DNA from: a virus
Length of the DNA stretch: 64,000 nt
Reading direction: 5' to 3' (one strand)
Virus record (IMG/VR): IMGVR_UViG_3300050154_000034
Span: 291 to 64,290 of that record
The translations under genes were made by a program, and so were the position numbers. The first letter of the stretch is position 1. Every line of letters starts with the position of its first letter. The notes under the pieces are model-generated. The model searched no databases, was not told where the DNA came from, and worked only from the letters and a program-made list of their open reading frames with translations. Shown here piece after piece: positions 1,426-3,551 of this stretch.

Positions 1426-1630
1426 TTTTATTAAATGTTTCGTTGTAGTATTGTTCAGCTTCTTGACTTTTATTATTTTTAAAATCAAATTTTATTGGGT
1501 AAATAAAACCTATATTATAAGAATCAATAATCTGTTGCTTTTCCATTTCTTTGGCTTGTTGAAATTCTTCAAGACTTATTCTACCTTGTTTATCATACAT
1601 AACTTGATATAAATACTCTACTGCTGTCAT
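1412..1630 (-). CDS. Hypothetical protein (MTAVE..., QQAKEMEKQQIIDSY family)
   Basis: 72-aa ORF starting at the ATG of a junction repeat. Confidence 0.75.
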   Translation of the reverse strand: MTAVEYLYQVMYDKQGRISLEEFQQAKEMEKQQIIDSYNIGFIYPIKFDFKNNKSQEAEQYYNETFNKNESN

Positions 1631-1633
1631 ATC

Positions 1634-1960
1634 TTATTTGTTTAAGAAATTATTAATTTTTAAAAACAACCAACCTGTTAAATAAGCTTCAGGTTCGTCA
1701 TTATATCTATCTAATTCCATTGCGCAATCTTGATATATATAATTCTTTAAGTGCACTATTTCGTGCGCTATTATAGTTCCTTCAGTGTACTCAAAAGCTA
1801 TAATATACTCACCAAAATTATTAGGTTCTCTCATTGTAATTGCCCCATAGTTAGATAGAGACTTTGTCTTATATTTTTTTTCAATATAAGACAAGTCATT
1901 ATCTAATATGATAGTTAACTTACAACAATATATTGGTATATCTATTGTGATCTTTCTCAT
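1634..1960 (-). CDS. Small zincin-like (HExxH) protein
   Basis: Motif IIAHEIVH plus downstream DEPEAY; starts and ends in junction repeats. Confidence 0.6.
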   Translation of the reverse strand: MRKITIDIPIYCCKLTIILDNDLSYIEKKYKTKSLSNYGAITMREPNNFGEYIIAFEYTEGTIIAHEIVHLKNYIYQDCAMELDRYNDEPEAYLTGWLFLKINNFLNK

Positions 1961-1963
1961 ATC

Positions 1964-2056
1964 TTATTTGTTTTTAAATTTATTCATCTGTCTTAACTCT
2001 AATGCAACTAACCATATAGGCAGGGCAATGATAATGCTACAAAGTAATTCTACCAT
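1964..2056 (-). CDS. 30-aa hydrophobic peptide MVELLCSIIIALPIWLVALELRQMNKFKNK
   Basis: Manual translation; fills the space between two junction repeats exactly. Confidence 0.65.
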   Translation of the reverse strand: MVELLCSIIIALPIWLVALELRQMNKFKNK

Positions 2057-2069
2057 ATCTTATTTGTTT

Positions 2070-2495
2070 TTAAATGTTTACACCGCATTTTTTGCAATAA
2101 GTAGTTAAGTCAAATGAGTCACCCGTTCTTATGAATTGATGTTGACAATCCGATTTTTTAAATTGTTCAAACCAGTCATCAAACCCTTGTTCTGTATTAG
2201 TACCTTTAGCGTTCCACCAATGATAAAAGAAATCTAAAGATATTTTTCTTACTTCTTCCTCACCATATCTTAGTGCAACTTCTAAGTCTTCAATCATTTT
2301 AATAGCTTTAGTACTACTTTCTCTTACAATGTCAAGCCTATTTTTTAAGTCTTGAATTTCTTGCTGGTCTTGTTCTTGTTGCCATTTAGCACCAAATCTT
2401 GCAACTTGTAATAAGTGATGTAAATTATAACTTGTTAGTATTGGGTATTTTTCTTTAAAAAGTTTAAACGCTTCTTCAAGTGTTTCTTGTCTCAT
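2070..2495 (-). CDS. Hypothetical mosaic protein (QETLEEA / GAKWQQEQ modules) with C-terminal Cys/His motif
   Basis: 141-aa ORF sharing near-identical DNA blocks with 2814..3551. Confidence 0.75.
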   Translation of the reverse strand: MRQETLEEAFKLFKEKYPILTSYNLHHLLQVARFGAKWQQEQDQQEIQDLKNRLDIVRESSTKAIKMIEDLEVALRYGEEEVRKISLDFFYHWWNAKGTNTEQGFDDWFEQFKKSDCQHQFIRTGDSFDLTTYCKKCGVNI

Positions 2496-2498
2496 ATC

Positions 2499-2585
2499 TT
2501 ATTTGTTTTTAAATTTATCATTAAGTTCTACTACAACATATACAGTAGAGAACACAAGTATCATTAATAAAAATGGTGTTTGCAT
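2499..2585 (-). CDS. 28-aa hydrophobic peptide MQTPFLLMILVFSTVYVVVELNDKFKNK
   Basis: Manual translation; bounded by junction repeats. Confidence 0.6.
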   Translation of the reverse strand: MQTPFLLMILVFSTVYVVVELNDKFKNK

Positions 2586-2588
2586 ATC

Positions 2589-2684
2589 TTATTTGTTTTT
2601 AAATTCTTTTAAAATTTCGTTTAATATATCTGCTATAAACCATAATGGTAATGCTATTAATATAATTTCTATCCATATTTCCAT
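2589..2684 (-). CDS. 31-aa hydrophobic peptide MEIWIEIILIALPLWFIADILNEILKEFKNK
   Basis: Manual translation; shares IALP(I/L)W with 1964..2056. Confidence 0.65.
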   Translation of the reverse strand: MEIWIEIILIALPLWFIADILNEILKEFKNK

Positions 2685-2687
2685 ATC

Positions 2688-2810
2688 TTATTTGTATTTA
2701 AGTTGTTCAAATAATTTAGTACTATAATCGTAAATAATTGTTGGAACAACATCTTTTATAAAACCAATAGAATTTATTGATTTATTGTTGCTTAATGATG
2801 TATTTCTCAT
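2688..2810 (-). CDS. 40-aa peptide MRNTSLSNNKSINSIGFIKDVVPTIIYDYSTKLFEQLKYK
   Basis: Manual translation; bounded by junction repeats. Confidence 0.55.
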   Translation of the reverse strand: MRNTSLSNNKSINSIGFIKDVVPTIIYDYSTKLFEQLKYK

Positions 2811-2813
2811 ATC

Positions 2814-3551
2814 TTATTTGTTTTTAAATTGTTCAATCATATTAATCAGATTATTACTACTTTCTCTTATAATGTCAAGCCTATTTTTTAAATCTTGAAT
2901 TTCTTGTTTGTCTTGTTCTTGTTGCCATTTAGCACCTTCAATAAAACCTACTTTAGATAATGAATATGCAGAATATCTTTCAGCAGCTTCTTCAAGTGTT
3001 TCTTGTTTTAAACTTCTTTCTTTCTCTATATCTAATTCTTTAGACATAAATCCAACTTCTTCATCTTCTTTTGGAATGATTATTTTGTACTCTTTGAAAT
3101 AGGAATATAGTTTTTTTTCTTGTTCTGATAATTGATTAGCATCATAATAACCACTTCCATGAAAATACACTTCTTCAACCTCAACCTCCTCACAACTCGG
3201 ATTCTTAACAAACCATTCAAGGAACTCATCATCAATAGCTTGAACTCCATCTTTGATTAAGTCTTGGTCTGTTGTTAGGATGATTTTTTTAACATGTTGA
3301 TAATTTTCAGAATTAAATGTTAAAACTTCAGCGTTATGAGTACACTTATCTACGTCTTTGTATTTTAAATTAATCCAATAATCTCCCTCTTTAATTTCTT
3401 CATCAGAAGTGATGCAGATGTTATATGGTTTATACCCTGCTGATGATATATACCAATCCATAGCCATAGTACTATTAGCTAATTTGTAATTATCATCTTT
3501 AGCATATAATATACTCGGTTTCTCTGTTGGTAATACGTGTACGTTTTTCAT
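2814..3551 (-). CDS. Hypothetical mosaic protein (KKIILTTDQDLIKDGVQAIDDEFLEWFVKNPSCE type)
   Basis: 245-aa ORF ending EQFKNK inside a junction repeat. Confidence 0.8.
   Translation of the reverse strand: MKNVHVLPTEKPSILYAKDDNYKLANSTMAMDWYISSAGYKPYNICITSDEEIKEGDYWINLKYKDVDKCTHNAEVLTFNSENYQHVKKIILTTDQDLIKDGVQAIDDEFLEWFVKNPSCEEVEVEEVYFHGSGYYDANQLSEQEKKLYSYFKEYKIIIPKEDEEVGFMSKELDIEKERSLKQETLEEAAERYSAYSLSKVGFIEGAKWQQEQDKQEIQDLKNRLDIIRESSNNLINMIEQFKNK

Follow-up and report, generated by a model that had tools for sequence, protein, structure and literature searches.

The DNA examined here, referred to below as the window, comprises 64,000 of the 65,860 bases of IMG/VR virus record IMGVR_UViG_3300050154_000034, which is rated 100% complete. 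Within a minus-strand operon of small early or accessory, non-structural genes, it carries an array of short genes joined by a recurring junction sequence, hereafter called the linker. Seven open reading frames (ORFs) lie end to start in the order 245, 40, 31, 28, 141, 30 and 108 amino acids (aa), and from the 40-aa gene on, each begins at the ATG of a linker copy. Four of them end in FKNK (245, 31, 28 and 30 aa), the 40-aa gene ends in LKYK, the 108-aa gene in FLNK, and the 141-aa gene terminates at an out-of-frame TAA within the repeat. The ORF list thereby bears out a gene map in an earlier note on this DNA, which had described six genes of 28 to 141 aa and a 245-aa gene running into the first copy, with the same C-termini.

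The linker is made up of the last four codons and the stop codon of the upstream gene (FKNK-stop), a spacer of 3 nucleotides (nt) and the ATG of the next gene. Its 3' 12-mer AAATAAGATATG occurs exactly seven times, always on the minus strand and always within 1628-2830; elsewhere in the window just two sites, 7833 and 62998, come near it, each with one mismatch. The longer 22-mer ATTTAAAAACAAATAAGATATG has five exact copies and one near copy with two mismatches, compared with a chance expectation of 0.01 copies in shuffled sequence, and none of 100 shuffles contained six or more. The seventh copy, which adds the 12-mer at 1628-1639, has only the 3' 16 nt in common with the others, and its 5' half is divergent (TTTCTTAAAC...). 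The seven 22-mers of the earlier note are thus correct as seven exact 12-mers, and have to be revised to five exact copies, one near copy and one half copy of 16 nt at the level of the 22-mer. A 16-mer search allowing one mismatch found no copy outside the array in the whole 65,860-bp record, so the repeat is confined to the array and is not a feature of ordinary gene junctions across the genome. The extended consensus of 22-27 nt reads (A/C)A(A/T)TTTAAAAACAAATAAGATATG. Read directly, the 22-mer is non-palindromic and holds no inverted repeat, and the leader is A-rich and lacks a Shine-Dalgarno site. Rfam and tRNA scans of the whole window gave no match, which argues that the repeat is not a known RNA.

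Along the minus strand, the 245-aa gene (2814-3551) joins an N-terminal MKN(V/I)H(V/I)LPT(E/D)K module in frame to a QETLEEA..GAKWQQE module, and ends as ..EQFKNK in the first copy (2808-2829, exact), where a GAT spacer leads to the ATG of the 40-aa orphan cassette (2688-2810). The second copy (2682-2703, two mismatches) closes that gene as ..EQLKYK and starts the 31-aa cassette (2589-2684), a single-pass membrane peptide of the ALPLW family with a basic FKNK tail. The third (2583-2604, exact) starts the 28-aa cassette (2499-2585), also a single-pass membrane peptide with an FKNK tail, and the fourth (2493-2514, exact) starts the 141-aa cassette (2070-2495), which combines the QETLEEA..GAKWQQE module with a Cys-rich C-terminal module. 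This gene runs into the fifth copy (2054-2075, exact) out of the usual frame and terminates at the TAA of its ATTTAA, and the same copy supplies the ATG of the 30-aa membrane peptide (1964-2056). The sixth copy (1958-1979, exact) starts the 108-aa cassette (1634-1960, phrog_1365), which ends as ..NNFLNK in the seventh (1628-1649; 3' 16 nt exact, 5' part TTTCTTAA). There begins the last gene of the array, a 72-aa TAVEY gene (1412-1630) of the TAVEW..YYNETF family. By eye, three degenerate remnants can be added, all on the minus strand: a decayed and untranslated 5' half-linker ATTTAAAAACAA just 5' of the ATG of the 245-aa gene (3557-3568), an internal half-linker (WFEQFK followed by KSD) in the 141-aa gene (2154-2174) and a decayed linker TTTAATAAAAATG at the end of the 72-aa gene (1423-1440).

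A hypervariable minus-strand segment (1550-3794) contains the array. Related loci (L248/L252, L250, L251, L253 and L254) are about 90% identical to the window over 7999-3794 and over 1550-758, with different genes in between: 244, 46 and 88 aa in L248, 72, 78 and 74 aa in L254, 37 and 97 aa in L251, and 167 and 63 aa in L253. These genes are joined by the same motif or its variants. The relatives therefore keep the flanks but not the gene order. The left edge of the segment (3794-3804) coincides with the end of a conserved 50-aa gene and lies within ..TTCACAATCATCAGAAAA.., which may be a second kind of junction sequence.

Exchange of single cassettes has left clear traces. The 30-aa cassette with both of its linkers (2079-1958) is 97.5% identical to positions 10248-10369 of locus L026, the flanks are unrelated, and the alignment turns random within a few bases outside both linkers. 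Homologues of the 108-aa cassette, 77-88% identical, were found in at least seven contigs, bounded upstream and downstream by linkers, and their neighbours differ among contigs save for two that are related to each other; the FLNK type of linker accompanies this cassette in the other phages as well. The motif itself is 100% identical where it adjoins homologous genes of 77-88% identity. Across all fetched loci, 9.3% of the ends of homology blocks between contigs that are not close relatives fall in motif windows, which make up 0.86% of the sequence. This corresponds to 1.53 block ends per linker against 0.48 per ordinary gene start, a 3.2-fold excess that may be inflated because the motif itself possibly extends BLAST blocks, and which we regard as supportive only.

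Duplications and fusions also respect the motif. Locus L103 carries on its minus strand (1858-2502) a tandem duplication, with 99.7% identity, of a 308-nt cassette (101-aa ORF, MKTQEPKQ..WFEQFKKK). The copy boundaries lie at the linker, and the internal junction is the chimera expected of a crossover within it. Locus L080 holds a 169-nt repeat of 98% identity, each copy of which ends 7 nt past a linker ATG. In the window, the 141-aa gene equals the ..WFEQFKNK-stop junction of other phages up to TTTAAAAA and then continues in frame into its Cys-rich module. The QETLEEA module of the 245-aa gene begins exactly at the linker site of other phages, where it is a separate gene after the linker, and many metagenome homologues of the 245-aa gene span only its N-terminal two thirds. 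A direct repeat of 105 nt with 90% identity (GAKWQQEQD..MIE; 2289-2393 and 2832-2936) relates the N-terminal part of the 141-aa protein to the C-terminus of the 245-aa protein. Collectively, the swapped cassettes, the linker-bounded homology, the duplication and the fusions support cassette shuffling at the linker, as had been proposed from the window alone, and the L103 duplication is an accordion-type change of the kind then envisaged.

The linker is not restricted to this phage. Its 18-mer core was found exactly in at least 119 IMG/VR contig stretches; the counts given here for this core apply among the matches listed, which hold 162 exact copies, 133 of them distinct. An upstream TTT that was not part of the query precedes about 111 of the 133 distinct copies, often after (G/A)AACA. 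An ORF of at least 20 codons is begun by 141 of the 162 exact copies, and at 103 of them the TAA of the motif is the stop of an upstream ORF. For 48 of the 133 distinct copies there is no ORF of 20 codons or more that reads into the motif, and about 11 of the 48 resemble chance matches inside genes. Such untranslated copies, placed after the previous stop or after a terminator-like hairpin, retain (A)ATTT together with the core. This indicates that it is the nucleotide sequence itself that is conserved, in connection with the start that follows. The earlier note missed that the motif is a consensus across phage lineages that is conserved even where it is untranslated.

Copies are clustered and co-oriented in five other records, including eight copies within 1.5 kb in a 97%-complete record of 39 kb, six in 2.3 kb, four in 1.3 kb, and three in 1 kb of a 160-kb record; overall, one-strand clusters hold three to eight copies within 1-2.5 kb. 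A mini-gene between two exact 16-mers was found in 11 further contigs, some of them with five to eight copies. The 39-kb phage has no detectable homologue of the terminase of the phage studied here, which argues that arrays occur in unrelated lineages. In a control search of 596 Gb of bacterial and archaeal genomes, by contrast, the 18-mer matches were all single copies, with the TTT at 3 of 121. Of these bacterial loci (L127-L246, many of them Bacteroidota), 42 of 121 place the 18-mer at a stop/start junction, as single copies without the upstream TTT; A-rich TAA..ATG junctions of the linker type may be common in Bacteroidota hosts. These single matches without TTT give no evidence for prophage arrays or for a host origin of the linker.

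No cultured model for the linker was found. Among cultured phages, neither megablast of positions 1-6000 nor tblastn of the 72-aa and 245-aa genes gave a match, and BLAST of the 61-nt junction returned noise only. Homologues of the 108-aa gene are present in Flavobacterium psychrophilum phages, and in FpV9 the annotated gene overlaps both neighbours, which, judging by annotation alone, would leave no space for a junction with a 3-nt spacer.

The proteins encoded in the arrays are mostly orphans, and a single large cluster of small proteins predominates, which brings together the TAVEW..YYNETF, QETLEEA..GAKWQQE..WFEQF and ADDYAIEF types. For the 245-aa family alone, metagenomes supply more than 8,000 unnamed homologues. 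Linker-started ORFs of at most 36 aa number 28, and about 18 of these are single-pass membrane peptides, mostly ending in ..FKNK, with a basic tail provided by the linker. Varied single-pass membrane peptides of 27-36 aa ending in ..(K/Q)FKNK recur in the window (1964-2684), in L026, L067, L105 and L121, and in others, and an ALP(L/I)W core is common to the 30-aa and 31-aa peptides of the window and to peptides of L026 and L108. Mosaicism within genes is also seen among the small array proteins, for example TAVEW heads with WFEQF tails in other loci. Such a composition might suggest that the repeat is a by-product of tandem paralogues (TAVEW..YYNETFKNK, QETLEEA..WFEQFKNK) with a conserved C-terminus and start. 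The largest cluster has 140 members in 72 loci, 62 of the 140 end in ..FKNK, many start right after the motif, and the 245-aa, 141-aa and 72-aa genes of the window belong to it. However, the motif also joins unrelated cassettes (the 40-aa orphan, the three membrane peptides and the 108-aa phrog_1365 gene), its nucleotides are retained where they are untranslated, and it does not share the divergence of the homologous genes beside it. We therefore regard an origin from paralogy as very unlikely.

The phage is AT-rich (G+C about 31%) and present in many leaf-litter and freshwater metagenomes, 22 runs in all. Upstream of its other genes the sequence is A-rich and a Shine-Dalgarno site is missing, and for this reason the host is probably a member of the Bacteroidota of Flavobacteriia type. 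The plus strand encodes the large terminase, the portal and tail fibre proteins, and a GroEL-type chaperonin at 13448-15022 (PF00118, E=7e-60) is 40-42% identical to the chaperonins of Baltic Flavobacterium phages.

In Flavobacterium johnsoniae, initiation does not use Shine-Dalgarno pairing; low structure and A at -3, -6, -12 and -13 are favourable, and a G at -3 is tolerated with little loss (PMC6847099). In the linker, A occupies -11 to -15, -7 to -9, -5, -4 and -2, with G at -3 and T at -6, a compatible though imperfect match to these determinants. The generic upstream preference in the other genes of the phage amounts to at most 0.75 bit per position, which does not account for the invariant bases at -10 (C), -3 (G) and -1 (T).

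The array shows no sign of promoters at its junctions: 23 sigma-70-like sites were counted where 33.7 were expected, no such site recurs from one junction copy to the next, and the array's single Bacteroidota-type TAnnTTTG (1820) falls within a gene and not at a junction. These results suggest that the cassettes have no promoters of their own, and a promoter role of the linker was rejected because it matches neither type of site. The coding strand of the array has no terminator-like site. A role of TTTAAAAAC as a -1 frameshift site was also rejected, since the zero frame TTT AAA AAC gives no X XXY YYZ heptamer.

The motif could be a signal for expression or regulation only, either an optimised leader for translation initiation and coupling or an operator for an RNA-binding regulator or nuclease, of phage or host origin, acting on early accessory genes, comparable to the RegA and RegB sites of T4, with mosaic boundaries arising by selected illegitimate recombination. 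Such a role would agree with the motif being kept when untranslated and abutting the start codon, with its limitation to one gene class per genome, with the fit of the A-tract at -11 to -15 to known Bacteroidia determinants, and with the occurrence of the same consensus, and not lineage-specific variants, in unrelated phage lineages. It does not account for the identity between the window and L026 that breaks off no more than a few bases from the outer edge of each linker, for the chimeric junction in L103 expected of a crossover within the linker, for the half-linker fusion in the 141-aa gene, or for the excess of block ends per junction over ordinary junctions. Additionally, no regulator common to all array phages was found, as no protein family occurs in all loci. 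A signal without a part in exchange is an unlikely explanation.

The recombination genes of the phage lie downstream of the array. The 5' part of a gene for an ERF single-strand-annealing recombinase (PF04404, E=4e-23) occupies 1-234 on the minus strand and runs past the end of the window; downstream of it follow a YqaJ-like exonuclease (PF09588) and then an SSB-like gene. The first 169 bases of the record are repeated at its end with 99.4% identity, with ERF spanning the join, which indicates a circularly closed or terminally redundant assembly although the record is labelled linear. Searches of the complete 65.9-kb genome with PF00589 and PF00239 found no tyrosine or serine recombinase, so that the lack of an integrase, first noticed in the window, extends to the whole genome. 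ERF as a universal partner of the arrays was rejected, as it is nearby at only 8 of 127 loci and absent from the 39-kb array phage. A search for a protein family common to all array loci was negative.

These observations bear on whether the array is integron-like, the motif being the site of a dedicated, still unrecognised site-specific recombinase. Promoterless cassettes of the same orientation, a constant boundary and cassettes common to unrelated phages would fit such a system. However, the complete genome lacks a tyrosine or serine recombinase, the A-rich, non-palindromic motif is unlike attC, no protein family accompanies all arrays, and the breakpoints vary in position within the motif as they do in homology-driven exchange. 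A hidden integron is therefore highly improbable. Nor is a dedicated recombinase behind the shuffling supported more generally, given that no integrase is present and that one array phage lacks ERF and RecT.

In our interpretation, which we consider rather likely, the linker serves several uncultivated phage lineages as a portable gene-junction adaptor in their accessory-gene arrays, acting both as an expression junction and as an exchange site. As RNA, it would give the upstream gene a harmless Lys-rich tail and a stop, with the next AUG three bases on in an unstructured, A-rich leader without a Shine-Dalgarno site. Promoterless cassettes on one transcript could then each be translated by re-initiation or by A-rich initiation, a role that we infer from sequence features. 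As DNA, the linker would offer a perfect match of about 20-27 bp between cassettes and between phages, as a substrate for ordinary homologous or annealing recombination. Since it holds the stop, a neutral tail and the next start, any crossover within it yields intact genes. T4 recombination is cited as needing less than 50 bp of identity (PMC2839356), and a match of 22-27 bp is in keeping with the presumed requirements of phage annealing and recombination systems. The enzymes might be ERF and the YqaJ-like exonuclease in this phage, and other phages must then use others. The outcome would be single genes that are swapped between phages, deleted, tandemly duplicated and sometimes fused.

Several results weigh against this interpretation of the linker as adaptor and exchange site. 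Linker boundaries are also gene boundaries, and selection on random illegitimate recombinants could place breakpoints in the same way. The breakpoints relative to L248 lie off the linker, one at 3794, where a gene ends but the motif is missing, and the other at 1550, within a gene; the earlier expectation that breakpoints fall at the repeat therefore holds for cassette-sized homology blocks, which begin and end there, and not for these outer boundaries. No ERF or RecT was found in the 39-kb, 97%-complete phage with the eight-copy array. The G at -3 and the T at -6 deviate from the known positive determinants of Flavobacterium. Local RNA folding at array starts is weak and no different from that at other gene starts, and RNA structure does not discriminate between the readings. 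The possible inflation of the block-end excess belongs here too. Finally, Logan contigs from four metagenome runs contain joints near linkers at 1643, 1979, 2079 and 2833/2837, whose sides of 21-27 nt are short and ambiguous; they probably derive from related phages and were not counted as deletions within the population. Ends of Logan contigs cluster at the linker copies at 1983, 2080 and 2490, which is only suggestive.

A bolder extension of the adaptor model would make the linker a universal currency of integrase-free cassette exchange across lineages, among phages that co-infect Flavobacteriia-type hosts. Cassettes would then be actively mobilised, for instance as circles or annealing substrates, and the sequence would be held constant by recognition through a conserved host or phage factor, which could be the ribosome or bS1, an RNA-binding regulator or a recombination protein. 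We find this extension quite unlikely. The single consensus in unrelated lineages is consistent both with a conserved recognising factor and with frequent exchange across lineages.

The linker can be compared with several known systems. In T4-type phages, the orphan genes of hyperplastic regions are bordered by PeSLs, or promoter-early stem-loops (Arbiol et al. 2010, PMC2839356; Comeau et al. 2014, PMC4122927). In both systems conserved repeats surround orphan genes, close relatives differ by insertion, deletion and replacement, and the repeats are proposed as homologous-recombination linkers that also carry the expression signals of the cassette. However, a PeSL is an intergenic element of about 100 bp with a sigma-70 promoter and a stem-loop terminator, which makes each cassette its own transcription unit, whereas the linker (22-27 nt, about four times shorter) has neither promoter nor stem-loop, overlaps the upstream coding end and would act, if it does so, in translation. 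For PeSLs mini-circles have been demonstrated; for the linker, exchange is supported by comparative footprints.

The start-associated sequences (SAS) of Cluster K mycobacteriophages are 13-bp, G+C-rich elements (GGGATAGGAGCCC) that include a Shine-Dalgarno core (Pope et al. 2011, PMC3203893). Like the linker, they are short, asymmetric and of one orientation, lie immediately 5' of the ATG in a non-structural region, precede genes of different families, sometimes include the upstream stop and are presumed to function in translation. They differ in that they are dispersed among many genes within a single phage cluster and are not known to be tied to cassette exchange, whereas the linker is A-rich, lacks a Shine-Dalgarno site, forms tight arrays in unrelated lineages and coincides with exchange breakpoints.

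The boundary sequences of the modular theory of phage evolution, as known from lambdoid phages, are few, weakly conserved and not arrayed. They resemble the linker as short conserved sequences between unrelated neighbours at mosaic joints; the linker has one exact consensus, is present up to eight times in 1.5 kb and encodes both a stop and a start. Linker sequences in modular phage evolution are also discussed in PMC2839356, and among known elements this old notion is the best fit. With integrons the array has promoterless, co-oriented cassettes and a constant boundary element in common, but the absence of an integrase and of a hairpin attC, together with breakpoints that vary within the motif, show that it is not an integron. 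The element is therefore related to known linker, PeSL and SAS elements, and what is new is the combined stop/start version without a Shine-Dalgarno site.

A separate observation concerns a non-coding stretch of about 510 nt on the minus strand (249-758), between a 131-aa gene and ERF. It is precisely absent in L248, L250, L251 and L254, where window position 758 adjoins 249 with 3 nt between. The insert is preceded by TAAATTTG, with a -33 TTTG at 768, and a freshwater metatranscriptome covers it at a word depth of 478-3778, with values of 0-6 on either side. Rfam gave no match to the insert even at E up to 1, and a folding z-score of -0.18 is not significant. The insert is a candidate for an abundant phage non-coding RNA on a mobile insert.

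How phages gain and reshuffle small orphan genes has been asked for a long time, and documented exchange through conserved linkers is rare, as in PeSLs and lambdoid boundaries. The linker described here is a very compact putative adaptor, and the ribosomes of the probable host group make no use of Shine-Dalgarno sequences. It is common to unrelated phage lineages of freshwater and leaf-litter communities and has left clear footprints there in the form of swaps, a duplication and fusions. As a search handle, it gives access to arrays of accessory genes, including many membrane peptides of 27-36 aa, in metagenomes of Bacteroidota phages. It is also a candidate plug-and-play expression junction for Flavobacterium genetics, and a testable system for the perfect identity needed by phage recombination. 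Should it serve as a currency of exchange between lineages, it would be a phage counterpart of the integron in which a single signal combines stop and start.

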